From positions 12,580 to 76,579 of the forward strand of contig JAHITE010000125.1 of the NCBI GenBank assembly GCA_018817585.1: a DNA stretch of 64,000 nt, given 5' to 3'. Positions 2,935 through 55,032 of the stretch are shown here, one piece after another. Numbering within the stretch: position 1 is the first letter of the stretch; the number at the start of each line of letters is the position of its first letter. The notes beneath the pieces are model-generated. The model had not been told where the DNA came from. It ran no database searches and saw only the letters and a program-made list of their open reading frames with translations. The stretch is from Candidatus Omnitrophota bacterium (GTDB taxonomy: Bacteria; Omnitrophota; Gorgyraeia; B26-G9). The translations under genes were made by a program, and so were the position numbers.

Positions 2935-3690
2935 ATGAAAAGAAATCAAGGTTTTACCTTACTGGAAGTGCAGATTTCGGCAATGCTGATGATTGTTGTG
3001 CTGATTGCTACCGGAGTTATTTTTTATTTTTCGTTGGCCTCCATAAGGTATATGCAGGATGCTTTTGATGTTTACACAAATGCTACAACCGCGATGAATC
3101 TGATTACCAATGAGGTAATACGGTCTAATTGTTATGGCTCAGCGCAAGGCCCTGGATATGTTGCTGTTCCAGGTAGCTTTTATGGTGCTAATGGGTATCA
3201 GCATGTGCTTGCCGGAGGAGCCTTGGGTGCTTCCGCGGATAGTGTGTATGTTGATATGCCGACATTGAATGATTCCAATGCTATGGTTGTCAGCGGTTTT
3301 GGTTCGGGAAATGGTCTTTATTTACGCCAGGCAACGCAAGCTTCAAGTTCCAGCGGTGTGGCAGCAGATGTTGCTGGAGATTTTCCTTCGCATGAAATAG
3401 TGGAAATATATCGTCAATGGTTTTTTGGTCCGCCGAATAAAATACAATTGATTGTGGATAGAACTGACCCAGTTCTAGGCAGCAGTATTCAAGCTATAGC
3501 GGATAATGTAATTCAGTTTGATTTTAAGCCGATTGCGTATAATTGTGTGCATGTTATTTTGACACTAGAGGGTAAGGTGGATGATCCGATGGCTGCTGGA
3601 GTGAAAAGGCATAGAATTACGCTGAGTAAGCTGATTACTTTGCGCTGCGCGCCTTCTGTTGCGCCAATACCTGGGGTAAATACATGGTGA
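2935..3690 (+). CDS. pseudopilin (minor pilin, PilW/GspJ-like) with prepilin-type N-terminus
   Basis: 251 aa; QG|FTLLEV motif with Glu+5 followed by hydrophobic helix. Confidence 0.65.
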   Translation: MKRNQGFTLLEVQISAMLMIVVLIATGVIFYFSLASIRYMQDAFDVYTNATTAMNLITNEVIRSNCYGSAQGPGYVAVPGSFYGANGYQHVLAGGALGASADSVYVDMPTLNDSNAMVVSGFGSGNGLYLRQATQASSSSGVAADVAGDFPSHEIVEIYRQWFFGPPNKIQLIVDRTDPVLGSSIQAIADNVIQFDFKPIAYNCVHVILTLEGKVDDPMAAGVKRHRITLSKLITLRCAPSVAPIPGVNTW

Positions 3691-3695
3691 TCTGG

Positions 3696-4034
3696 ATGAG
3701 AAAAATGAAATTTTTATCAGCTAAAAATATCCCCAAAAAAACTGACAGAGAAAAAGCCCAGGCAATGGTTGTGTCATTTATTTATGTGAGTATTGTTTCG
3801 CTGATCGCGATTTATATGATGTCTTATGCCCATAATCTGAATAAAGTTGTAAGTCGAGACATAAAACATAGTATGTCTTTTTACGCCGCGGAAGGCGCTT
3901 TAATCAGGGTGATGTCATTACGTGAGTTGGGCCGGCCAACTCCTGTAAACATGGATACAGCGCCGATGACTATTGGCATTCAAACAGCTGTTGATGGAAC
4001 AACCCGAAGGATTACGGCAACTGTTAATTGGTAA
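3696..4034 (+). CDS. small membrane-anchored protein, possible PilX-like pilus-associated protein
   Basis: ORF-track start 3684 overlaps the previous gene; ATG 3696 has a GGTGA RBS 5 nt upstream; single N-terminal TM helix; no recognised catalytic motif. Confidence 0.4.
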   Translation: MRKMKFLSAKNIPKKTDREKAQAMVVSFIYVSIVSLIAIYMMSYAHNLNKVVSRDIKHSMSFYAAEGALIRVMSLRELGRPTPVNMDTAPMTIGIQTAVDGTTRRITATVNW

Positions 4035-4085
4035 TAAAACTTAATTGATGTTTATTTTCTATAAATAATATGGTGGAGGCAAATA

Positions 4086-4904
4086 ATGGCGCCAAAAATA
4101 AAACAGTTTTTACAAAAAATAAAACAGGTAAATAAAGAGTATTTACTGCTTTTTGCAATAGTTACTTTAATTGGATTATTGATCTATTCTTCTACCGCGA
4201 CATCGCAACAATCTCCGGAAGAAATAACCTTAACTACTTTTTATCCTTGTCCTTTTGGAGAGTATGACCGGATTACTGCTTCGAGATTTATTGATTTTGA
4301 TAATGTTAATCGCTGGTTTGATCCTAGCGGAGATACTCAGCTGGAATCTTTGCGGGTTTTTAATGGGATTCTTGCAAATGTAGTTGTTGGTCCAGCCGGG
4401 ACATATTCGGTTAATTTTGTGACTGGCGAGGCGTTTCTTAATGTTGTTACGGCAGATAAACTGGTAATGACTGGGCCAGCGCCTTCGCCAACATATGAAG
4501 TAAATGGTGGAAATTATGTGTGGGATATTGCTGAAGGTATGCTAATTACAGAATGTACCGCGGGTGATGTTGTGATCATCGGCGATGATCCGGGAAAGGG
4601 TTTGGTTAAATCAACTGAAAAATTCGATTCCCGGGTTGCGGGGATTGTTTCCACTGATCCTAAGATTTATATGGGAGCGGCTGAAGATAAAATGCCTTTA
4701 GCTTTGGCCGGGATTGTAAAATGTAACGCGACTGTGGAAAACGGAGCAATTAAACGCGGTGATTTGCTGGTAAGTTCTTCTTTGCCGGGTTATGCTATGC
4801 GGGCTTCGGCAAAAGAAGTAAAGCCCGGGATGCTGGTGGGCAAAGCATTGCAGGAATTAACTTCAGGCCAGGATAAAATTTTTGTTTTAGTTAATAAACA
4901 GTAA
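4086..4904 (+). CDS. hypothetical signal-anchored protein, paralog A of a tandem pair, conserved C-terminal domain
   Basis: 272 aa; strong RBS GGTGGAGG; N-terminal TM/signal anchor; shares VWDIAEG and a 110-aa C-terminal block (FDSRVAGIVS..PKIYMG..PLALAGIVKCN..GAIKRGDLLVSS.PGYAM.A..PGML.GKAL) with the next gene. Confidence 0.6.
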   Translation: MAPKIKQFLQKIKQVNKEYLLLFAIVTLIGLLIYSSTATSQQSPEEITLTTFYPCPFGEYDRITASRFIDFDNVNRWFDPSGDTQLESLRVFNGILANVVVGPAGTYSVNFVTGEAFLNVVTADKLVMTGPAPSPTYEVNGGNYVWDIAEGMLITECTAGDVVIIGDDPGKGLVKSTEKFDSRVAGIVSTDPKIYMGAAEDKMPLALAGIVKCNATVENGAIKRGDLLVSSSLPGYAMRASAKEVKPGMLVGKALQELTSGQDKIFVLVNKQ

Positions 4905-4923
4905 AATATAGAGACTTTTGATT

Positions 4924-5769
4924 ATGAAAAAAATAAAATATTTTAAAATATTAAGTCTTGAGATAATCGGTGTATTATTATTTGCCGCGGGTTTAGGTTT
5001 CGCGCAGCAAGGAGCTGTGAAAACCCTAAGTATTAATACGCATCGATTTCTTTATAACGCGGCAGCGAATTATGTTGCAGCGGCTTATGATGTTTTAGTT
5101 GCTAAACAGTTTATTGATCGAGATCCAGAGGCACTGGCCGGGGGCCATAGTTGTTTTGGGGACCCTAGCGAACAGAGCGATTTGCATCATCTGACAGTTA
5201 ATGATGGACTGGAGTTTGACTATACGGATTCTGGAACCATGACTATAAGTGCTGTGCCTTTAGGGGCATTCTCAATTAATTTCGAAGATGGTTGGGCCGG
5301 TGGAGAAGCATATTTTTCAACTTGTACTGCAGTTAAATTTGTAATGATAACCCCATTTCCTGATTCTAGAAATGATGAGGGCAAAAAAGTATGGGATATT
5401 GCTGAAGGTATTAATGTTGAATTTGGTGATGCTTGTGATGTTGTGGTTATTAGTAAAAATAAAGATTTGACGGTTACGCGTTCAACTGTTAAGTTTGATT
5501 CTAAAGTGGCCGGAGTTATATCGGAGTCACCAAAAATATATATGGGAGATATGGCAGGTAATAAGCCTTTGGCTTTGTCCGGGATTGTTAAGTGCAATGT
5601 GAATACGCAAAACGGGCCGATTAAAAAAGGTGATATTCTGGTAACATCATCAGAGCCTGGATACGCGATGAAAGCTAATGAAAGTCAAGTATTGCCGGGA
5701 ATGATTATTGGCAAAGCTTTGGACGCGCTTGATCAGGGTAAAGGAAAAATTTATATTCTAATCAATTAG
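4924..5769 (+). CDS. hypothetical secreted protein, paralog B of the tandem pair
   Basis: ORF-track start 4918 is TTG; the ATG at 4924 gives MKKIKYF...; signal peptide ending AAGLGFAQQ; C-terminal domain about 55-60% identical to paralog A. Confidence 0.6.
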   Translation: MKKIKYFKILSLEIIGVLLFAAGLGFAQQGAVKTLSINTHRFLYNAAANYVAAAYDVLVAKQFIDRDPEALAGGHSCFGDPSEQSDLHHLTVNDGLEFDYTDSGTMTISAVPLGAFSINFEDGWAGGEAYFSTCTAVKFVMITPFPDSRNDEGKKVWDIAEGINVEFGDACDVVVISKNKDLTVTRSTVKFDSKVAGVISESPKIYMGDMAGNKPLALSGIVKCNVNTQNGPIKKGDILVTSSEPGYAMKANESQVLPGMIIGKALDALDQGKGKIYILIN

Positions 5770-7543: not shown

Positions 7544-9236
7544 TAAAAATAAAAAAGGAAATATTATGAAAAAAACAGGCGCGGAGATTATTGTTGAGTC
7601 ACTGTTGAAAGAAGGAGTACGGGTTTTGTTTGGTTATCCCGGCGGTTCAGTTTTACCGCTTACTGATGCCCTCTACGATGCGCCAATTGATTTTATTCTG
7701 GTTCGTCATGAACAGGCAGCGGCGCATGCTGCTGACGGCTATGCCCGGGCAACCGGCAAGGTCGGGGTTTGCATGGCTACATCTGGTCCCGGAGCAACTA
7801 ATTTGGTAACTGGTTTGGCAACAGCGCATATGGATTCTATTCCCATGGTTGCGATTACCGGACAGGTAAACAGTACTTTGATTGGTAATGATGCTTTTCA
7901 AGAAGCGGATATTACCGGAATAACAAGATCCATTACAAAACACAATTATCTGGTTAAAGATATCGCTGAACTGGCCAGTACAATAAAAGAGGCTTTTTAT
8001 ATTGCTTCAACCGGCAGGCCGGGGCCAGTAGTTATTGATGTTCCGGTTGATATCCAAAAACAGAGCATGGAATTTAATTACCCGGAAACAATTAAAATGC
8101 GTTCTTATAATCCGGAAATCGCATTGCCAATGGATCAGATTAAAAAAGCAGCTAAGCTGATTGAAAAAAGCAAAAGACCAGTTGTTTATGCCGGCGGGGG
8201 AATTATAATTTCCCAAGCGCATGATGAACTGCTGGAATTCGCGGTAAAAATCAATGCTCCGGTAACTACGACTTTAATGGGCCTGGGCGGTTTTCCGGAA
8301 ACCAATGAACTGGCCTTGGGAATGCTCGGGATGCATGGTACTGTATACGCGAATCATTCAATAATGGAAAGTGATTTGATTATCGCGGTGGGCGCTCGTT
8401 TTGATGACCGGGTAACCGGCCGGATTGATAAATTCGCGCCAGATGCCAAAGTAATTCATATTGATATTGATCCAACCGCGATCAGCAAGAACATCCGTGT
8501 AGATATCCCGGTTATTTGCGATGCCAAGCAAGGGCTGCGGGCTTTGAATAAAATTGTAAAAAGATTAGAAACAGATGCCTGGCTGAAAAAGATTCATGGC
8601 TGGAAAACAAAAGCGCCTTTGCAGTATCAAACATCAGGTCAAAAAATCAGACCGCAGTATGTTGTAGAGCAGATTTACAAAATAACCAAAGGTGACGCGA
8701 TTATTTGTACTGAAGTCGGACAGAATCAGATGTGGGCAGCGCAGTATTATAATTATACTAAACCGCGCACATGGATTTCATCCGGCGGCTTGGGAACAAT
8801 GGGCTATGGTTTTCCCGCGGCGATTGGCGCTAAACTGGGCAGACCAGATAAAATAGTTTTTGATATAGCGGGTGATGGTTCAATTCAAATGAATATTCAA
8901 GAGCTGGCTACTGCTGTAGCGAATAAGGTTAATGTTAAAATCGCGATATTGAATAATGGATATCTGGGCATGGTTAGACAATGGCAAGAGCTGTTCTATA
9001 ATCGGAGATACGCGAATACGCCAATAACTGGTCCGGATTTTGTGAAATTAGCGGAAAGTTATGGTGCTGCAGGGATAAGAGTTAAGAAAAAAGCCGATGT
9101 TGCCGCGGCAATTAAGCAGGCAATTGCTATTCCCAATGTAGTTTTTCTTGATTTTGTAGTTGAACCAGAAGAAAATGTTTTTCCCATGGTTCCTGCTGGT
9201 GAGGCCATAGATCGGATGATCGGCGGAATGGCGTAA
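7536..9236 (+). CDS. ilvB: acetolactate synthase large subunit (ThDP-dependent)
   Basis: 566 aa; [15 protein letters not shown]-terminus, ThDP motif [14 protein letters not shown]. Confidence 0.95.
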
Positions 9237-9959: not shown

Positions 9960-11036
9960 ATGTTGACCATGGAGTACTTGCTTAAGCTGATTGTGGATAA
10001 AGGCGCGTCAGATCTGCATCTTACAGTAGGGATTCCGCCGCAGCTGCGTATCGGAGGGCAATTAACTTATACAACCAGCGAGCTTATAGATCCGGAAACA
10101 TTGAGAAAGCTGGCATATAGCCTTTTGACCAGTGATCAGATCGCATGGTTTGAGCAGAAAAAAGAGCTTGATTTTTCCTGCGGTTTAGAAGGAGTCAGCC
10201 GGTTTAGGATAAACTTATATTATCAGCGGGGATCGATTGCCATGGCCGCGAGGGTTATTCCGTTTATTATTCCGACAATTGAACAGCTGGGATTGCCGGA
10301 AATAGTTAAAGAATACGCGGATAAACCAAATGGATTAGTTCTGCTTACCGGAGCAACCGGCAGTGGTAAATCAACTACTCAGGCCGCGATCATTGATTAT
10401 ATTAATAAGCGGAGAAGAGCGCATATAATTTCAGTTGAAGACCCGATTGAGTATTTGCACAAGCACCAGCTTTGTACAATTAATCAGCGTCAGCTGGGCA
10501 CAGATACGCTTTCTTTTGCCGAGGCTTTAAAGCATGTATTGCGCCAGGATCCGGATATAGTGGTTATTGGTGAAATGCGGGATCTTGAGACAATTCAGGC
10601 AGCTTTGACTTTAGCGGAAACAGGGCATTTGGTTTTTGCCACACTGCATACCAGCAGCGCGGTTAATTCAATTACCCGAATAGTTGATGTGTTTCCGGCG
10701 CATCAGCAGCAGCAAATCCGCGTGCAGCTTTCATTGGTATTAGTCGGAGTTTTGGTTCAGCGATTGATCCCCAATGCTGTGGGCGAAGGCAGGTCCTTAG
10801 CAATGGAGATTATGACCATGATCTCGGGGATACAGAATCTGATCCGAGAAAATCAAGTGCATCAGATATATTCGCTGATTCAAACCGGCAGACGTTTTGG
10901 GATGAGAACAATGAATCAGGCATTGTGTGATTTAGTGACAAGCAATAAGATAACTTTTGGCGAGGCTTTAAAACAAACTGCGGACGAGCAGGAATTAAAT
11001 TCATTAGTTCAAAAACAAAATAATAAAAACATGTAA
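9960..11036 (+). CDS. pilT: type IV pilus retraction ATPase PilT/PilU family
   Basis: 358 aa; Walker A LLTGATGSGKSTT, AIRNLIRE-like GIQNLIRENQ motif, PilT length; embedded between ilvN and ilvC. Confidence 0.88.
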   Translation: MLTMEYLLKLIVDKGASDLHLTVGIPPQLRIGGQLTYTTSELIDPETLRKLAYSLLTSDQIAWFEQKKELDFSCGLEGVSRFRINLYYQRGSIAMAARVIPFIIPTIEQLGLPEIVKEYADKPNGLVLLTGATGSGKSTTQAAIIDYINKRRRAHIISVEDPIEYLHKHQLCTINQRQLGTDTLSFAEALKHVLRQDPDIVVIGEMRDLETIQAALTLAETGHLVFATLHTSSAVNSITRIVDVFPAHQQQQIRVQLSLVLVGVLVQRLIPNAVGEGRSLAMEIMTMISGIQNLIRENQVHQIYSLIQTGRRFGMRTMNQALCDLVTSNKITFGEALKQTADEQELNSLVQKQNNKNM

Positions 11037-47861: not shown

Positions 47862-49556
47862 GTGACAATTATGCGAAAAATCTGGAAAACCAAACCCAAA
47901 ATTAATGAAGAATGTAAATTGCTTGCCGAGAAATCAGGTATTTCGCTGATCCTTGCCCAGATTTTAATCAATCGCGGTATTCATAGTCCGGCTGATGCTA
48001 AAAAATATTTAAATTGTGATTTAAATGATACGCATGATCCTTTTTTATTAAAAGATATGCCTCTGGCAGTAAAACATATTAAGAACGCGATTAAGCTTAA
48101 AAAAAACATTTTTGTTTATGGTGACTATGATGTCGATGGTTTAACCAGCTGCGCGGTTTTGTCTAATGTTCTTAAGCAGTTAGGCGCTAATGTATCATGT
48201 TATATTCCGCACAGAGTTGATGAGGGTTATGGTTTAAATAAACAGGCTTGCGCGCGAATAAAACAGCAGGGAGCTGATCTGCTGATTACAGTTGATTGCG
48301 GTATCAGTGCTTTTGAACAAGTTGCTTATTCGCATTCTATAGATTTAGAAGTGATCATTACCGACCATCATCAGCCGGTGGGTAAAAAAGTGCCGCGGGC
48401 ATTGGCAGTGATTAATCCTTTTCAGGCTGGCTGTGATTATCCGTATAAGCATTTGGCTGGAGTGGGAATTGCCTATAAGCTGGCTTGTGCCTTGGTTGGC
48501 CCAGAACAGGATATATCAGAAAATTTAGACTTAGTGGCTTTGGGTACAATTTGTGATGTTGCTTTGCTTACTGGAGAAAATAGGATTCTGGTTAAACATG
48601 GGCTGGAAAAGCTTTCCCAAACAAAGCGGATTGGCCTGCAGGCGCTGAAAGATGTAGCCGGGATTAATAATAAAAAAGTAGAAGCGTATCATGTTGGTTT
48701 TATCCTCGGACCAAGAATAAACGCGACTGGCCGGATGGGCTCAGCGGAAAAAGCCTTGGAGCTGTTATTATCCGCTGATTATAGCCAGGCGATTGTTTTA
48801 GCTCAGGGGCTGGATAATGAGAATAAACAAAGGCAGAAAGAAGAAGCCAAAACTTTACGTCAAGCTTTGGCAATGATCGATAAAGAAATAAATTTTAAAA
48901 CTGATAAGGCTGTTGTTTTGCACAATGATGCCTGGCATCCGGGAGTGATCGGGATTGTCGCTTCCCGGATTACGGAACGCTTTTATCGGCCGACAATATT
49001 AATTTCCACAAAAGATGAAATCGCTAAAGGGTCAGGACGTTCCATCCGCAATTTTCATCTTTTTGAAACAATCGCTCAATGTGATCATTTGCTGGAAGGC
49101 TTTGGCGGTCATGAAAAAGCCGCTGGGCTGAGTATTCTAAAACATAATATTGAAAGCTTTAAACAGTCTTTTAATCAGATGGCCAGTTCGAGTTTATTGC
49201 CTGAAGATATGATGCCGATGATTGCTATTGATATGCAAATACCATTAAGCGCTTTAACTGAAACCTTGATCAATGAAATAGAAAAATGCGCGCCTTTTGG
49301 TATGGGTAATACCCGGCCTTTGTTTTCTTCAGTTGATCTGAAATTAAAGGGCAGTCCCAAAGTCCTCCGAGCCAATGGATTTAAAATGTGGATAACTGAT
49401 GGCCAGGTTACCTGCGAAGCCTTGGCTAGTAATTTCATGGATATTGATATTAACCATATTCAGGATGGTTTTTCGATTGTTTACTCTCCTTCAATAAATG
49501 ATTGGCAAGGAATTCATACTATTCAATTAAAGCTTAAAGATATGCAGTTTTCTTAA
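47862..49556 (+). CDS. recJ: single-stranded-DNA-specific exonuclease RecJ
   Basis: 564 aa; DHH motifs DYDVDGLTS, ITDHHQP, DHHA1 domain GGHEKAAG. Confidence 0.92.
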   Translation: MTIMRKIWKTKPKINEECKLLAEKSGISLILAQILINRGIHSPADAKKYLNCDLNDTHDPFLLKDMPLAVKHIKNAIKLKKNIFVYGDYDVDGLTSCAVLSNVLKQLGANVSCYIPHRVDEGYGLNKQACARIKQQGADLLITVDCGISAFEQVAYSHSIDLEVIITDHHQPVGKKVPRALAVINPFQAGCDYPYKHLAGVGIAYKLACALVGPEQDISENLDLVALGTICDVALLTGENRILVKHGLEKLSQTKRIGLQALKDVAGINNKKVEAYHVGFILGPRINATGRMGSAEKALELLLSADYSQAIVLAQGLDNENKQRQKEEAKTLRQALAMIDKEINFKTDKAVVLHNDAWHPGVIGIVASRITERFYRPTILISTKDEIAKGSGRSIRNFHLFETIAQCDHLLEGFGGHEKAAGLSILKHNIESFKQSFNQMASSSLLPEDMMPMIAIDMQIPLSALTETLINEIEKCAPFGMGNTRPLFSSVDLKLKGSPKVLRANGFKMWITDGQVTCEALASNFMDIDINHIQDGFSIVYSPSINDWQGIHTIQLKLKDMQFS

Positions 49557-49793
49557 AGCAGTTAATAACCGCGCTGTCTTTGTTTTAAAAAGTATCTTAT
49601 TTTTAACTAAATTATTTATCCGCGTTTTTCGCTTAAAAAGTCCGCGCTAATCCTCTGGCAGTAAAAACAATAATTTGTTTAAATGAATAATATGTTGAAA
49701 TTAAAAGCATTATGATCGAAAAAATCTAAGTGTATATAGCAAAAATAGATATTTTATGGTATACTTTAGAATCTTTTTTAAAGACCTTTTTAA

Positions 49794-50060
49794 TGGTCTG
49801 AAAAAGATTTTGGCTTAAACACAAATCCTGCGCAAGTATATCCGGGACTTTGGGTTGGAAGCACTAAAGACGCTCTTTACGCGCAAAGATATGTCTTTGA
49901 TAGTATTCTCAATGTTGCTCAGGAGTTTGATCTTAAAATTTCTGAAGAGGACATTCTTGAAAGCGTGAAGTGGATTAAAAAACAACTTAATTTGGATAAA
50001 AAATTGCTTGTTCATTGCTGTGTAGGTATTGCCAGAGTAGTTTCAATTGTAATCGCGTAA
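49794..50060 (+). pseudogene. degraded dual-specificity (Cys-based) protein phosphatase gene
   Basis: Open frame with no start codon: SEKDFGLNTNPAQVYPGLWVGS...LLVHCCVGIARVVSIVIA*, with the HCxxGxxR (CX5R) P-loop. An ATG at 49793 is one base out of frame. A TAA cuts the expected A-Y-L/M-R-K continuation (A*YMRKIFRQV*) with further stops. A TGgTATACT extended -10 lies about 30 nt upstream. Confidence 0.5.
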
Positions 50061-50310
50061 TATATGCGCAAAATTTTTAGGCAAGTGTAGCTCAAATAAA
50101 AAGTGAAATAGTTCGAAATCTTAAGAAATATACTATTATACCGCAGAGAGCTCTGGAGCAAAGTCTTTTGAATTTGTTTCATGTTCCGGAGTTTATACAT
50201 GATACAGGAGCTCATATAGAGATGAAAACTAATAGGCTAATAAATCGAATGAGAAATAGTGTTGTTAGCGGGTATTTAGTATAAAAAACGGATAGGGTAT
50301 CAAAAATCTA

Positions 50311-52167
50311 ATGAATTATCAAAAATCAAAATTCAGTTTAATATTCAAAATAATCTCTTTAGTGCTTATGCAGGCTTTTTTTATGATCGATATTGCTTGG
50401 GCAGGAGGAGAATTTATTATTACTAATACCCTCTCTAAAGCTTCTACTCTTGCGCCAAAAGTCACGTTAAACAGTATTGAAGTTTTTAATACTTATCTTT
50501 ATTTTCTTAAGGATTCAGGGACGGGTAGTGAAACCGAATTTCAGGAAACGGATTTAATAGAACCAGAAAAATATACTCCTCAAGGAGGCATATTAGGGCC
50601 TGAATTTATAGCGGATCAGCTGATTAGAGCCGTTAATTTAAAATATTCTATAAATGATGATATTGCTACTGCTGTAAATTTTGTCAGAAGGGATATCCTT
50701 GCAGGAGCCAATTACACAATAGAGGATTTTATTCAGGTTTTAAGAAAACAGACAGAATTAAAGGCTGCAGCGGATAGCCGGCTCAGCTATATGATTGAGG
50801 TGATCAATAAATATTTTATTTTTGATGAGATATTTGAGCCTAAAAATGATTTTGAAAAAAGGATAGCTGGTTATATAAATACAATTATTAGTGAACATAA
50901 TTCAACTCTGGGGAGTGAAGAAAAAAGTGATCGGATGCTTAGATTGCTTGATATTGTTGAAGCAAGAGATAAATTTCCAGGGGATTCTTTTAATAGGCCT
51001 TGGGCTTTGTTGACTATAGAATTTGAAGACGGTACGATAAGAACATATATTTTTAAAAAAGAAGTGTTGGGAGCGATGGAAAACTGGGGCTATTATATGC
51101 TCAAAACTCTTGGCATAGATGCTTCTAAAACAAGGAAATATGGAGAGAACTTATATTTGATTGTTCCTATAGGTAAGTTCAATCTGGGCAGAGTTAATGC
51201 GGAACAGTATTTAAATCATGAATTTGCCGAACGTTTAAGCTATTTGACAGGCAGAGCCGCGGTAAGAGCATTTATTTTGGGGTTGGCTGATAGAAAAACG
51301 AGTAATATGAGGGTTATCCTCGATGACTCAGGCCTGCCGCAGCAAATTATAAACGCTGATTTAGCTTCTTCTTTTACTTTCAGTAAAAAGGGCATGGAAC
51401 GCGTTGCAGTTAGTGAAGGTGTATGGTTACTAGGTGATATTTTAGCAGAGGCAAGAAAAGCTGGAGTGAGTAACAGAGGTTTAATTGAAATGATAGAAAA
51501 GTTTATGAACGGATTCAGATTGCAGCTAAGTGAGTTTCAGGATGGCTATTTATTTTTTAAGAATAGATTTGATAAATATGACCCCACGAACCAAGAGAAG
51601 CTTAGTTGGCAATGGGAACTTGCTTATCAGATGCAATCAAGGAAGTCGGTTGTGTTAGATAGAATAAATCCTTTAAATATTAATAATTATGAGATCAATA
51701 TATTCCTGTTAATGGAAATACTTTTAAGCCTCAAAAGCAGAAAATTCTTTAATGACGATGATTTCTTGAATATCGTTTTTAAAAAGAATGAGTTTGTTTT
51801 TGAAAAAACAGAGGATCTATTTAAAATGTTTAGACGTCAGGGAGTAGAGTTTTATAAAGACAATATTAAATTAATAGCAGATCTTTTGGAAGTGTTTAGT
51901 GATTTAGCGCATGAATTGGAAAAAAAAGAAAAGTATAATTCTGCGGTTATTTGCTATAGTTACGCGGTATATATAAGTAGTTTATTAGTTGAAAATGTGG
52001 AAGAAGATGCGCGTGATGGTTGGAGGCAACAAGAACAACTATTAAAGCAAGAGCTGAAAAAAATACGCGCGATTATAGCAGTTTCTGAAATAAAAGATGT
52101 TATGAGCAGAAATCCTTATTCAGGAGATATTGACTTTCAAGTTGAAACTATTAAACAGTCAATATGA
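50311..52167 (+). CDS. large secreted/anchored hypothetical protein with a protein-kinase-like catalytic-loop motif
   Basis: 618 aa; N-terminal signal (…MIDIAWA|GGEF); the kinase-like order is TIRTYIFKKE (beta3 Lys?), AMENWGYYML (alphaC Glu?), LYLIVPIG (hinge?), GLADRKTSNMRVILDDSG (D-x-K-x-x-N like HRDLKPEN) and NADLA (DFG-like?); this is inference only. Confidence 0.45.
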   Translation: MNYQKSKFSLIFKIISLVLMQAFFMIDIAWAGGEFIITNTLSKASTLAPKVTLNSIEVFNTYLYFLKDSGTGSETEFQETDLIEPEKYTPQGGILGPEFIADQLIRAVNLKYSINDDIATAVNFVRRDILAGANYTIEDFIQVLRKQTELKAAADSRLSYMIEVINKYFIFDEIFEPKNDFEKRIAGYINTIISEHNSTLGSEEKSDRMLRLLDIVEARDKFPGDSFNRPWALLTIEFEDGTIRTYIFKKEVLGAMENWGYYMLKTLGIDASKTRKYGENLYLIVPIGKFNLGRVNAEQYLNHEFAERLSYLTGRAAVRAFILGLADRKTSNMRVILDDSGLPQQIINADLASSFTFSKKGMERVAVSEGVWLLGDILAEARKAGVSNRGLIEMIEKFMNGFRLQLSEFQDGYLFFKNRFDKYDPTNQEKLSWQWELAYQMQSRKSVVLDRINPLNINNYEINIFLLMEILLSLKSRKFFNDDDFLNIVFKKNEFVFEKTEDLFKMFRRQGVEFYKDNIKLIADLLEVFSDLAHELEKKEKYNSAVICYSYAVYISSLLVENVEEDARDGWRQQEQLLKQELKKIRAIIAVSEIKDVMSRNPYSGDIDFQVETIKQSI

Positions 52168-52938
52168 AAACAGTGTGTAGCGTGTATTGTGGTAAATATG
52201 AATAAATCCTTTGAGATTGATAAGCGCAAGTCTTTTGAATTAAATAAGTTCTAACTTATCCTTCTGTTTTCAAAAAAATCTCCCGTTGATTTATCTGAGT
52301 TTTTGCCAAGCAAAGTAATTGTGACCTCTTGCTAAAATTATTACTTATGATGAGTTTTTGGCTAAAAACGGATCTTTAAAACCTTGGAGTATCTCTGCTA
52401 TAAAAAAAGAATAACATTACTTCTTTTGCGGTAGCTTTTATGGCTCATTCTTGAATAATGAGCCATAAATTACATAACTCAAGCAAAAAAAGATGATAGA
52501 TAAATTTTACGCTCAGTTATAAATTTTCTTGCGGTAAACCAGCAAGACCGGCAAACATAAACTGTGTTTTTGGCGCTGTGGAACTCACCCAGCTATGGCT
52601 GGGTTCAGACAGTCCTCGCGCCCAAAAGGGTTTCCAAAAACCCAATTTATATTTGCCTAAATTTATAAACGAGCTTAAAAATTCAATCATCATCTTTAGA
52701 AAAAGTCCACTTTATTTACGAAAGAACCGCTTTTATTAATAGTTCTATTTAATCTAGAGTGTTATTTCTCTTTGTTGTAACTGATTCCAATAAAAAAGTT
52801 TATAAAAATTAAACGCTTTACTCTAAGTATAAAATCATTGATTTTTACTCTAATTATAGTTATACTGAAAATAATATTTTATTCTTTTTTCAGAGTATAG
52901 AGCAGATATTAATTATTTAAAACACAAAGAGGATAACT

Positions 52939-53244
52939 ATGTTTATTATTGCGTACATTCTTGAAGGCATAGCCACGGTTTTAGGTCTGGCTTTGAGCAT
53001 ATACTATTATTTGCTTTTAGCCAGAGTATTGATCAGCTGGGTTAATCCTGATCCATACAATCAAATTGTGGTTTTTTTGCGTCAGATGACTGATCCGATT
53101 CTGGAGCCTTTACGCCGTGTGTTTTTGCCTTTAACAATGCAGATCAGAGTTGATTTGTCACCGATTCTTGCTTTTTTTATCATTGTTTTTCTGCAGAAAT
53201 CTTTGGTGGGAATGCTATTTCATATTGCCTATATGCTTAAATAA
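52939..53244 (+). CDS. yggT: YggT-family membrane protein
   Basis: 101 aa; ARVLISWVNPDP...TDPILEPLRRVF signature of YggT/Ycf19. Confidence 0.75.
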   Translation: MFIIAYILEGIATVLGLALSIYYYLLLARVLISWVNPDPYNQIVVFLRQMTDPILEPLRRVFLPLTMQIRVDLSPILAFFIIVFLQKSLVGMLFHIAYMLK

Positions 53245-53252
53245 GGGGAAAA

Positions 53253-54959
53253 ATGAAGAGCCCGAATAATATAATCAATAGACTGCTGGATTCAGTTATC
53301 GGAGTTGTCGGAGCCGCTTCTTTAGTTCTTTTGCTTATTGAGTGGGGAATGATGCCGATTATCAAAGGTATGGGGATTACCATGCTGGATAGAATTGATA
53401 ATATTGTTCTAGTAATATTTCTGCTCTCAGTTATCAGCCGTTTTATCAAATCTGAGTCAAAAAAAGAATATTTTAAGAATTACTGGATCGATCTTTTAGT
53501 ATTTGTTCCTTGTTTTTGTTTTTTTAAAGGAATTCATAACGCGAAGTTATTTCTTGTGATAAGAGAAGCGATTGTATTGTTTGGGTTTTGGCATAAGAAC
53601 AAGTTTTCCCAAAAGTTAATTAGTTTATTAGGCTTAAAACCAGCACATTTGCTGATAGCTAGTTTTATGATGACGATTCTGATCGGAACCTTTCTCCTTA
53701 CTTTGCCGATATCGACTCAGACCGGACAGGGTTTGAATTTTGTTGATGCTTTGTTTACTGCCACCTCCGCGACTTGTGTTACCGGGCTTATTGTGCGCGA
53801 TACAGGAACGTTTTTTTCTGGTTTTGGCCAGTTTGTGATTTTGGCTTTGATTCAGATTGGAGCTTTAGGAATAATGACATTTTCCGTAACTTTATTTTTG
53901 TTCGCGGGCAAACAAATGTCGAATAAGGAAGCAATGACTATGCAGGATGTTCTCGATCAGGACAGCCTTTCGGGAATAAGGGAACTGATTCATTTTATTG
54001 CTAAGATGACAATATTTGTCGAGTTGCTGGGAGCAATATTTTTGTATGTGGGATTTGAGCCTTATATCGCGGATCCCTGGCAAAGATTATACACCTCATT
54101 ATTTCACTCTGTTTCCGCTTTTTGTAATGCCGGATTTTCTTTGTTTAGCGATAATTTAATGCAGTATGTTAAGGATGATATTATTAATCTTACGATTGCT
54201 TTTTTAATTATTTTCGGCGGATTAGGGTTTATCGTAGTCAAGGATGTCTGGGGAAAATTTGTTAAAAAGGACCGGCCAAAAAGTTTAGGGCTTAAAGTCC
54301 ATACGAAAATTGTTCTTTCAATCACATTTTTTTTAATTCTCGCGGGAACAATCTGTATATTCTTCGCGGAAAATAACAGCGCTATTTTAAGCGGCATGAC
54401 TTTGAAGGATAAGATCTTAATTAGTTTTTTTCAGTCTGTTTCTACTCGAACTGCTGGTTTTAATACCATTGACATTGGGAAAATGGCCAATGCGAGTATT
54501 TTTAGTATGATTATTCTGATGTTTATCGGAGCCTCAGCTGGTTCAACCGGAGGGGGGATTAAGACAACCACATTTTGGATGCTGCTTAAATCATTTACCA
54601 GCAGCATGCACAGCAAAGATGATATTGATTCATTTAAACGCGAGATACCAAGAAGTATTGTGCAAAAATCCATGGCTATTTTCGTGTTGGCCTTGAGCTT
54701 TGTGATTATATTTATGTATTTAGTTTCTTTGTTTGAAAATTTAGCTTTTCGGGATCTGATATTTGAAGTGGTTTCTGCTTTTGGCACAGTTGGTTTATCT
54801 ACTGGAATTACGGCATCACTGCATTTGCCGGGTAAAATTCTAATAACCCTGCTTATGTTCTTAGGCCGGCTTGGCCCTTTGACAGTTGTTTTGGCTTTTT
54901 CCGGATATAAACAAAAAATAAATTACACCTTTGCCCAAGAAAAAATCATGGTAGGGTAA
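53253..54959 (+). CDS. Trk/Ktr-family K+ transporter membrane subunit (TrkH/KtrB) with N-terminal extension
   Basis: 568 aa; selectivity-filter-like TATSATCVTGL, SVSTRTAGFNT, GASAGSTGGGIKTTT, SAFGTVGLSTG; about 100 extra N-terminal residues with two TM helices. Confidence 0.85.
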   Translation: MKSPNNIINRLLDSVIGVVGAASLVLLLIEWGMMPIIKGMGITMLDRIDNIVLVIFLLSVISRFIKSESKKEYFKNYWIDLLVFVPCFCFFKGIHNAKLFLVIREAIVLFGFWHKNKFSQKLISLLGLKPAHLLIASFMMTILIGTFLLTLPISTQTGQGLNFVDALFTATSATCVTGLIVRDTGTFFSGFGQFVILALIQIGALGIMTFSVTLFLFAGKQMSNKEAMTMQDVLDQDSLSGIRELIHFIAKMTIFVELLGAIFLYVGFEPYIADPWQRLYTSLFHSVSAFCNAGFSLFSDNLMQYVKDDIINLTIAFLIIFGGLGFIVVKDVWGKFVKKDRPKSLGLKVHTKIVLSITFFLILAGTICIFFAENNSAILSGMTLKDKILISFFQSVSTRTAGFNTIDIGKMANASIFSMIILMFIGASAGSTGGGIKTTTFWMLLKSFTSSMHSKDDIDSFKREIPRSIVQKSMAIFVLALSFVIIFMYLVSLFENLAFRDLIFEVVSAFGTVGLSTGITASLHLPGKILITLLMFLGRLGPLTVVLAFSGYKQKINYTFAQEKIMVG

Positions 54960-55032
54960 AATAGCGTATAGCGATTAGCATTTAGGAAAAACATAAAGAG
55001 CTTAGCGGCTAATAGGTGATAGTCAATAGTTT

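Follow-up and report, generated by a model that had tools for sequence, protein, structure and literature searches.

Bacterial kinases of the phosphoinositide (PI) kinase type have been described as accessory, fast-evolving effectors, among them Legionella MavQ, LepB and LegA5, Francisella OpiA and Rickettsia Risk1. These translocated lipid kinases act in another cell, and MavQ opposes the CX5R phosphatase SidP (bioRxiv 10.64898/2026.07.27.740984; PMC12607708; PMC8208517; PMC9758233). They are delivered by type IV or type VI secretion systems into eukaryotic hosts and carry no Sec leader, whereas the hosts described for the Omnitrophota are prokaryotes (PMC10066038; bioRxiv 10.1101/2023.11.21.568195). 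Here, we analyze the recJ-yggT interval (positions 49557-52938, 3,382 bp) of a 64-kb stretch of the Candidatus Omnitrophota contig JAHITE010000125.1 (“the window”). The single long open reading frame (ORF) of the interval encodes a 618-aa protein in which a predicted PI3K/PI4K-like kinase domain stands between an N-terminal leader and a short C-terminal tail, both of which recur on proteins with unrelated bodies. The kinase is likened to the MavQ-type effectors by description, none of which was among our PDB search matches, and we regard the MavQ/SidP analogy as a resemblance only.

The closest described domain is that of the PI3K, PI4K and PIKK kinases (PF00454; VPS34/PIK3C3, TOR2, ATM), with which the 618-aa protein appears to share the bilobal fold and with which its N-lobe, catalytic-loop and N-x-D-[LF] motifs align; the loop reads GLxDR[H/K/S/N]xxN[IM]R in the family and GLGDRHPSNL in TOR2. 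It differs from them in its low identity (~12-14%) and in having no helical (PIK), C2, FAT or FATC domain, and its family adds a secretion-type leader, C-terminal helices and a tail of its own, and up to 13 module copies per polypeptide. A second comparison is with polymorphic toxin and effector families, which have in common with this one a constant leader, variable cargo, same-strand arrays, strain-level cargo replacement and relics. Their trafficking domains (Rhs, PAAR, LXG, WXG, MAFB, the C-terminal domain of the type IX secretion system, haemagglutinin repeats) were not detected in the Omnitrophota family, small immunity-like genes do not follow its cargo genes in the arrays, and the conserved extreme C-terminal tail is a feature of the Omnitrophota family, not of theirs.

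The literature portrays the Omnitrophota as nanobacteria, host-dependent and predatory or parasitic, whose giant proteins are secreted or anchored in the membrane (PMC10066038; bioRxiv 10.1101/2023.11.21.568195; bioRxiv 10.64898/2026.06.07.730766), and hypervariable loci have been reported across their chromosomes (bioRxiv 10.1101/2023.11.21.568195; bioRxiv 10.64898/2026.06.07.730766). The giants of the phylum, multi-enzyme proteins with signal peptides and transmembrane segments (“archaeovorins”), resemble the relatives of the 618-aa protein, which are likewise multi-domain with GGDEF, HD and methyltransferase domains, whereas the 618-aa protein itself is small by comparison. Term searches of PMC10066038, bioRxiv 10.1101/2023.11.21.568195 and bioRxiv 10.64898/2026.06.07.730766 found the PI3K-like module, the leader and the Q-[SA]-I tail unmentioned.

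An earlier reading of the window from its sequence alone (the sequence-only reading) had singled out the interval as an AT-rich accessory islet and had likened the kinase-like protein and the phosphatase there, as a pair, to eukaryotic-like signaling or effector modules. In our judgment, the evidence moderately favors a different account, in which the recJ-yggT interval is a slot for a fast-turnover tandem array of leader-cargo-tail genes, and the surviving gene encodes an exported, divergent PI3K/PI4K-like kinase.

Leader, kinase domain and tail of the 618-aa protein

Judged by its motifs and by a structural model, the central domain of the 618-aa protein is a PI3K/PI4K-like kinase domain, not one of the HRDLKPEN type. 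The sequence-only reading had compared the catalytic-loop sequence GLADRKTSNMRVILDDSG, which is present as it was quoted, with HRDLKPEN; the pattern found is instead that of the PI3K/PI4K/PIKK kinases (GLxDR[H/K]xxN ... N-x-D-[LF]). Conserved over 42 copies of the module are G241, K249, G314, G324-L-x-D327-R328-x-x-x-N332-x-R334, P343 and N348-x-D350. K249 lies within EDGTIRTYIFKK, which aligns to SDGKDYQYLLKS of TOR2, and the lysine is kept in 31/42 copies. In the catalytic loop, GLADRKTSN, the counts are 32/42 for D327, 36/42 for R328 and 35/42 for N332; the histidine position holds His in 8/42 copies and Lys here. N348-A-D350-L aligns to HIDFG of TOR2, with Asp in 34/42 copies and a following Leu or Phe in 35/42; several family copies read GLGDRHFGNIRL...NIDMD. 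The beta3 lysine in IFKK (K249), the LYLI hinge and the D327...N332 loop had thus been placed correctly from the sequence, whereas the proposed alphaC glutamate (AMENW) is not conserved in the family, and the metal-binding aspartate, D350 in NADLAS, had been missed. As K249, D327, N332 and D350 are all kept, the kinase is probably catalytically active.

Profile searches point in the same direction. PF00454 (PI3_PI4_kinase) matches 12 of 31 family members at E <= 1, the best at 1.7e-6, and no other Pfam family recurs; a faint match was also already on record (precomputed) for P0004, a giant relative. Searched against the PDB, the family profile matched the catalytic loops of TOR2, mTOR, ATM, SMG1 and PI3K-alpha (E = 0.003-0.7). 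When the profile was trimmed to the catalytic core, TOR2 was the best match (E = 0.0012), aligning DGxxxxYxxK and GLxDRxxxN...N-I-D-[LF] (GLGDRHPSNL...HIDFG in TOR2). The top matches of the untrimmed profile had been designed helical repeat proteins, which we rejected as compositional matches to the C-lobe helices, the trimming having put TOR2 first.

The structural prediction agrees with the kinase fold that had been suggested from the sequence. A single-sequence AlphaFold run on the whole 618 aa gave a mean predicted local distance difference test (pLDDT) of 42, and we used instead an AlphaFold2 model of residues 165-618 built on a 31-sequence alignment (pLDDT 91.2; predicted template-modeling score, pTM, 0.89). 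In this model, three N-lobe strands lead to K249 and are followed by a helix, the LYLI strand, a long helix and the catalytic loop, beyond which come two short strands, D350 and a helical C-lobe; this is the kinase order. Foldseek against the PDB ranked human VPS34 (3ihy) first (E = 2.3e-4, TM-score 0.37 on the 454-residue query), followed by RIO kinases, a corramycin phosphotransferase and eukaryotic protein kinases, and 50/50 of the matches listed were kinases or kinase-fold phosphotransferases.

The module occurs singly in P0002, P0003, P0005 and P0007 and in tandem in giant proteins: 13 copies in P0004 (5071 aa; L028 6001-21216), 12 in P0006 (4792 aa), six in P0016 and four in P0010, each repeat spanning ~250-300 aa. 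Most copies in the giants keep the catalytic residues, and some have lost D, N or D. The giants have a different N-terminus and the same ...E-[QE]-S-I C-terminus.

The two ends of the 618-aa protein define the wider family. Its start at 50311 is backed by leader homology from Met1 in at least 11 proteins, the gene caller of the Logan assembly having begun at residue 20. The leader consists of MNYQKSKFSLIFKIISLVLMQAFFMIDIAWAGG, ~15 variable residues and then the box STLAPKVTLN; aa 8-33 are the sole hydrophobic segment of the protein, preceded by three lysines. Over this region, the protein is 46-58% identical to the N-termini of at least 11 proteins of 379-2855 aa with unrelated bodies. At the other end, nearly all full-length members, giants included, finish in Φ-x-[QEH..]-[SA]-I (KQSI, GQAI, EQSI, EHAI). 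Across the window and eight further loci, an [SA]-I C-terminus is found in 18/19 leader-box genes and in 3/64 others (Fisher p = 3e-14). Neither Pfam nor NCBIfam has a model that matches leader or tail. The helices between kinase domain and tail are modeled at high confidence to ~aa 590 and show a weak MIT-like hint in Pfam (E = 0.05-0.08).

A word-index search with the 618-aa protein returned only the protein itself, while an exhaustive HMMER search found 30 relatives, which match three separable modules (leader, kinase and C-terminal helices). A leader alignment run against a set of 5.8 billion proteins gave nothing at E <= 1e-3, the query being short for such a database, and a metagenome scan with a 6-sequence leader alignment yielded five loci (L023-L027). 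These five, L021 and L022 are same-strand tandem arrays of two to five leader/tail genes each. By Pfam and NCBIfam, leader-sharing proteins carry cNMP-binding and GGDEF domains, P-loop nucleotide kinase and XopAK/Ntan1-like domains; inspection by eye adds SLT-like, HExxH and HD motifs, and among the further cargo of array genes are an alpha/beta hydrolase, a PrmA-like methyltransferase and, as a weak match, a GH-E nuclease. The leader-cargo-tail family is apparently undescribed so far.

In one of the arrays, L022, adjacent family genes of 1528 and 1496 aa have near-identical 160-bp upstream regions (423-582 and 5415-5574), which suggests a recent duplication or gene conversion within the array.

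The recJ-yggT interval and its counterpart in a close relative

The interval stands out in composition, as the sequence-only reading had noted: the ~3.4 kb are flanked by recJ and yggT exactly as it described, and their GC content, 32.5%, is the lowest found when the 64 kb are scanned in 3.4-kb windows (mean 38.1%, standard deviation 1.9). Coordinates are collected in Table 1. Stretches without a long ORF measure 754 bp (49557-50310) and 771 bp (52168-52938), and the earlier description of long non-coding DNA holds for these lengths; it does not hold for their content, since the stretches are in part decayed coding sequence plus a MITE-like (miniature inverted-repeat transposable element) insertion. 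Altogether, the flanks of the 618-aa ORF contain a conserved promoter-like element, two gene relics and the small inserted element.

The comparison that bears most directly on the locus is with JAHITY010000080.1 (L002), a metagenome-assembled genome of Candidatus Omnitrophota and the closest genome by RecJ (91% aa identity). Genes on both flanks are collinear in L002 at ~86-89% nucleotide identity, while its recJ-yggT gap is 7.4 kb long and holds three different ORFs, of 730 aa (no known domain), 676 aa (Methyltransf_28) and 703 aa (HD_4 / RelA-SpoT-like). The leader box is present in all three proteins, whose last residues are QSI, QAI or RSI. The window and the L002 gap have only the edges in common (49557-49777; 52326-52427; 52731 onward).

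The 5' edge carries what may be a shared promoter. Window positions 49557-49777 align to L002 5105-5330, directly 3' of recJ (~70% over 202 bp). The extended -10 that had been noticed before the phosphatase, TGgTATACT (49757-49765, within the element aTGGTATACTTTAGAATCTTTTTT), recurs upstream of related genes at three other places: in L002, the same element lies 5' of the genes for the 730-aa and 676-aa proteins, and in L022 it precedes the gene at 10447. The conserved element aTGGTAtACTTTAnAAnCTTTTTT occupies window 49745-49780, L002 ~5295-5325 and ~8160-8190, and L022 ~10370-10400, and its recurrence 5' of family genes supports a shared promoter. A scan for the sigma-70 consensus was uninformative (11 sites versus 15.8 expected in shuffles), so the promoter claim rests on the conservation of the TGGTATACT element. 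Within L002, the second copy falls within the 5' end of the 676-aa ORF as called mechanically, and the true start of this gene probably lies further downstream.

Directly behind the promoter-like element lies a degraded dual-specificity phosphatase (DSP) pseudogene, as the sequence-only reading had suggested, with at least three lesions. All the features on which that suggestion was built are present: a phosphatase core of ~89 codons with a CX5R P-loop, no in-frame start, and an ATG at 49793, the sole one nearby, which is one base out of frame (ATG GTC TGA). The frame is bounded by TAA immediately 5' (49791-49793) and by a premature TAA at 50058-50060, with further stops and a frame change beyond. 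Pfam DSPc scores 23.8 bits on the unrepaired frame (E = 4.2e-5; cut-off 33.5 bits) and 34.6 bits (E = 2e-8), covering profile positions 37-98 of 133, once the start, the TAA and a single frameshift are repaired in silico. Among PDB sequences, human DUSP22 matches best (7.5e-6), with other atypical DSPs also among the best. The relic's VYPGLWVGS and its HCCVGIAR plus VxxVIAYxM align with residues 9-52 and 70-107 of this atypical DSP (PF00782), from which it differs in being a pseudogene, in a shorter loop between the two blocks and in a C-terminal third that is undetectable. Its P-loop LLVHCCVGIARV (~50012-50047) agrees with HCX5R and has Val after the Arg, not Ser/Thr. By eye, 50075-50194 resembles the C-terminal helix of a DSP, and weakly suggests a remnant of it, the Pfam alignment ending at profile position 98/133. 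A word-index search of 5.8 billion proteins with the repaired phosphatase found no close homologue.

The Logan assembly of run SRR6514274 is 100% identical to window 48639-52663, phosphatase lesions included, which rules out an assembler artifact and leaves errors in shared reads possible. Separately, a hairpin with a T run, weakly terminator-like (CGCGTAATATATGCG CAAAATTTTT; 50054-50078), overlaps the premature TAA and is placed between the shared promoter element and the 618-aa gene.

Downstream of the 618-aa gene, a stump of a third family gene remains. Its main part (IAKIITYDEFLAKNGSLKPWSISAIKKE followed by a stop) is 56% identical over 43 aa to the L002 703-aa protein in tblastn, and window 52326-52427 corresponds to L002 12188-12288 at 83% nucleotide identity. 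Its 3' end is split by a 287-bp insertion that is absent from L002 and bordered by an 8-bp direct repeat, GCTTTTAT (52434-52441, 52729-52736). The insertion has imperfectly inverted ends (GGCTCATTC / GGTTCTTTC) and a hairpin of ~95 nt (z = -2.6), together with a palindrome at 52437-52469 and an inner pair of 25-bp inverted repeats (52502-52526 / 52659-52683); its core has a 75%-identical copy at an unrelated L002 position (69-167), and Rfam gives no match for it. By these marks, it looks like a small non-autonomous, MITE-like mobile element. A 58-aa minus-strand ORF within it (52517-52693) was considered as a gene and rejected, having no family matches and a broken frame in the L002 copy.

The earlier description of the interval as an accessory islet therefore stands in one respect and not in another. 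Gene content is wholly different in L002 and the arrangement is not conserved core synteny, so that accessory status is upheld by the one close genome compared; variable content between close relatives coincides with deviant composition (32.5% versus 38.1% GC). Marks of an inserted island are absent, with no direct repeats flanking the interval, no tRNA gene and no integrase-sized ORF, judged by ORF length without an integrase-model scan. Homology to the L002 array at both edges indicates that the array changed in place, and the gap looks like a fixed chromosomal slot in which a gene array turns over. More distant recJ loci (L003-L020) do not keep the recJ-yggT synteny and are uninformative on the slot.

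Searches for other kinds of element were negative. There is no tRNA or tmRNA in the whole window; Rfam on 49000-53500 gave two chance-level matches only, so known RNAs do not explain the ORF-free stretches; and PADLOC and PHROGs returned no matches, so this is not a known defense system or phage module.

Two further observations concern the window. An exact 14-nt direct repeat, AAGTCTTTTGAATT, occurs at 50161-50174 and 52228-52241, ~150 bp upstream and 60 bp downstream of the 618-aa gene; by a rough hand estimate, ~0.1 such pairs are expected by chance in 3.9 kb of this composition, and the pair could be a recombination or cassette junction. In the ORF list, we also saw by eye, at 2935-5769 and 9960-11036, an ORF with a prepilin-type N-terminus (MKRNQGFTLLEV) and a PilT-type-ATPase-like ORF, along with two neighboring ORFs that have hydrophobic N-termini. 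These could be parts of a type II secretion system or type IV pilus relevant to export, 40 kb from the locus.

Table 1. Features of the recJ-yggT interval and its flanks (window coordinates)
Feature	Position	Strand	Remarks
recJ	47862-49556		5' flank of the interval; Pfam DHH, DHHA1, RecJ_OB
Upstream region common with the relative	49557-49793	+	promoter-like element aTGGTATACTTTAGAATCTTTTTT; GC 25.7%
DSP pseudogene core	49794-50060	+	VYPGLWVGS ... HCCVGIAR (CX5R); reads WSEKDFGLNTNPAQVYPGLWVGS...LLVHCCVGIARVVSIVIA (stop) / ...KKLLVHCCVGIARVVSIVIA (stop)
Possible frame-shifted C-terminal phosphatase remnant	50075-50194	+	ASVAQIKSEIVRN..IIPQRALEQSLLNL; open in +2 frame
Intact 618-aa gene	50311-52167	+	leader-cargo-tail architecture
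N-terminal leader, aa 1-75	50311-50535	+	basic n-region; hydrophobic aa 8-33 ending AWA/GG; linker; box STLAPKVTLN
Predicted PI3K/PI4K-like kinase domain, ~aa 205-470	50923-51720	+	G241, K249, G324-L-A-D327-R328-K-T-S-N332-M-R334, N348-A-D350
C-terminal all-helical region, aa 471-613	51721-52149	+	homologous to P0002, P0003, P0009, P0013, P0015
C-terminal tail I-K-Q-S-I and stop	52150-52167	+	family motif Φ-x-[QEH..]-[SA]-I-COOH
3' relic of third family gene	52328-52441	+	homologous to the L002 703-aa HD/RelA-SpoT-like gene; in-frame stop
287-bp insertion	52442-52728	.	absent from L002; splits 3' end of relic gene
Last codons of relic gene	52729-52752	+	AFINSSI (stop) versus GFIDRSI (stop) in the L002 703-aa gene
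Conserved yggT upstream region	52753-52938	+	window 52731-54985 aligns to L002 12297-14548, 86.6%
yggT	52939-53244		3' flank of the interval; Pfam YGGT, E = 4e-21; trkH next

Competing explanations

On the reading that we favor, the interval would be a decayed array, comprising here the shared promoter region, a dead DSP gene without a leader, the intact 618-aa gene and the MITE-split 3' stump of an HD gene. A Sec-type signal or signal-anchor would bring the 618-aa protein into an N-in position, with its body on the outer side of the cytoplasmic membrane; the three lysines before the single hydrophobic segment, and its AWA/GG end, predict export or anchoring N-in. The TLAPKΦxΦ box and the free C-terminus Φ-x-Q-[SA]-I would then, most likely, direct the protein to a dedicated sorting or delivery step. 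Its cargo, a divergent PI3K/PI4K/PIKK-like kinase with K249, D327, N332 and D350 in place, would have a hydroxyl as its substrate, e.g., that of a lipid head-group or of Ser/Thr in a protein. As a kinase needs ATP, it would act where ATP is available, in a host or prey cell or at the membrane of such a cell. An effector-like arsenal fits the ATP- or nucleotide-dependent cargo on the outside, the two tags, the arrays, their replacement and decay and the low GC better than housekeeping signaling does. It also agrees with the host-dependent or predatory habit reported for the phylum and with giant proteins that are secreted or anchored in the membrane (PMC10066038; bioRxiv 10.1101/2023.11.21.568195; bioRxiv 10.64898/2026.06.07.730766).

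Several points weigh against this account. The 618-aa protein itself has no PF00454 match at E <= 1 and reaches no Pfam threshold, and we therefore file it as a distant superfamily relative, not as a PF00454 member. The sequence E-values to PI3K/PIKK proteins are weak (0.001-0.7), the Foldseek TM-scores are modest (0.3-0.4), and the His of DRH is Lys in the protein. Export is predicted from hydropathy and the positive-inside rule only; we could link the tags to no secretion or sorting component, the neighbors of the arrays being ordinary housekeeping genes. The GGDEF, cNMP-binding, HD and NMP-kinase cargo consists of classic cytoplasmic signaling domains, and many relatives have extra transmembrane segments, which would equally fit inner-membrane signaling proteins. 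Finally, the locus comparison involves one closely related genome, and the leader-alone search of 5.8 billion proteins, empty at E <= 1e-3, gives no measure of how large or how widely distributed the family is.

The main rival follows from some of these points. The 618-aa protein may be an inner-membrane-anchored signaling protein of the producer cell, with its kinase-like domain in the cytoplasm, and the family a lineage-specific sensory or regulatory expansion. Relatives join the leader to cNMP-binding, GGDEF, HD and NMP-kinase domains and to further transmembrane segments, ATP is found only in the cytoplasm, and no secretion genes adjoin the arrays. We nevertheless consider this explanation unlikely, since the three lysines and the AxA-like AWA/GG end predict an N-in/C-out orientation or cleavage, and since a complete change of content between 86%-identical genomes, together with pseudogene decay, is unusual for regulatory housekeeping genes. 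The effector- or toxin-like cargo elsewhere in the family (XopAK/Ntan1-like, weak GH-E nuclease, alpha/beta hydrolase, SLT-like and HExxH by eye) also speaks against it.

A less probable explanation, to which we give limited credence, is that the module is a non-catalytic, kinase-fold binding or scaffold unit of envelope or giant proteins, of which the 618-aa protein would be the single-module version. It would account for the 4-13 tandem copies in the giants, for the copies that have lost D, N or D, and for exported kinases without ATP. The retention of K249, D327, R328, N332, R334, N348 and D350 in the 618-aa protein and in most copies (31-36/42), on the other hand, is what would be expected of a catalyst and not of a scaffold.

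We find it quite improbable that the protein is a small-molecule or peptide kinase of the aminoglycoside/corramycin phosphotransferase or LanM dehydratase type, with a role in resistance or natural-product synthesis. The corramycin phosphotransferase at Foldseek rank 4 hints at such a function, as do weak matches of two family members to DUF4135 (E = 0.0087), which we take to be the LanM dehydratase region. The motif alignment, however, points to PI3K/PIKK (DGxxYxxK, GLGDRHxxN...IDF), no biosynthetic or resistance genes lie nearby, and the leader/tail architecture is common to unrelated enzymes.

The reading that comes closest to the sequence-only one, a horizontally acquired islet with a functional eukaryotic-like kinase and phosphatase, is largely refuted in this genome and deserves very little weight: both folds are present and adjacent, GC is low, and effector pairs such as Legionella MavQ (PI 3-kinase) with SidP (PI 3-phosphatase) are known (bioRxiv 10.64898/2026.07.27.740984), but the phosphatase lacks a start and carries a premature TAA and a frameshift, the same in the second assembly, it has neither leader nor tail, none of the other loci and proteins examined pairs a DSP with the kinase module, and the interval has no tRNA gene, flanking repeats or integrase-sized ORF and is homologous to the L002 array at both edges.

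Implications for the Omnitrophota

Omnitrophota are abundant, mostly uncultured, ultra-small bacteria that are thought to live on other cells, and the locus supplies a searchable signature for them: variable enzymatic cargo between a leader box and a Q-[SA]-I C-terminus. The family so defined includes a divergent kinase module that is without description in Pfam, NCBIfam or the Omnitrophota papers examined.

Going beyond the account favored above, we offer a more specific proposal tentatively, as a possibility that we would not bet on. Leader and tail may mark the substrates of an undescribed Omnitrophota sorting or delivery route, by which these host-dependent nanobacteria would deploy a polymorphic arsenal of enzymes that modify nucleotides, lipids and proteins, PI3K/PI4K-like kinases included, single or in 13-fold tandem, against prokaryotic, possibly archaeal, hosts. 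Within that route, the kinases might act on inositol lipids or proteins of the hosts; inositol phospholipids are common in archaeal membranes.

That the two tags mark a new sorting route is a realistic prospect. If they are sorting signals, the exported repertoire of the phylum would become predictable genome-wide, phylogenetic profiling could find the machinery that reads the tags, and the action of a lipid-kinase-type enzyme on prokaryotic hosts would be open to biochemical assay. If the family consists instead of cytoplasmic signaling proteins, it would still stand as a new kinase-fold family that is specific to the lineage and unusually amplified in tandem.

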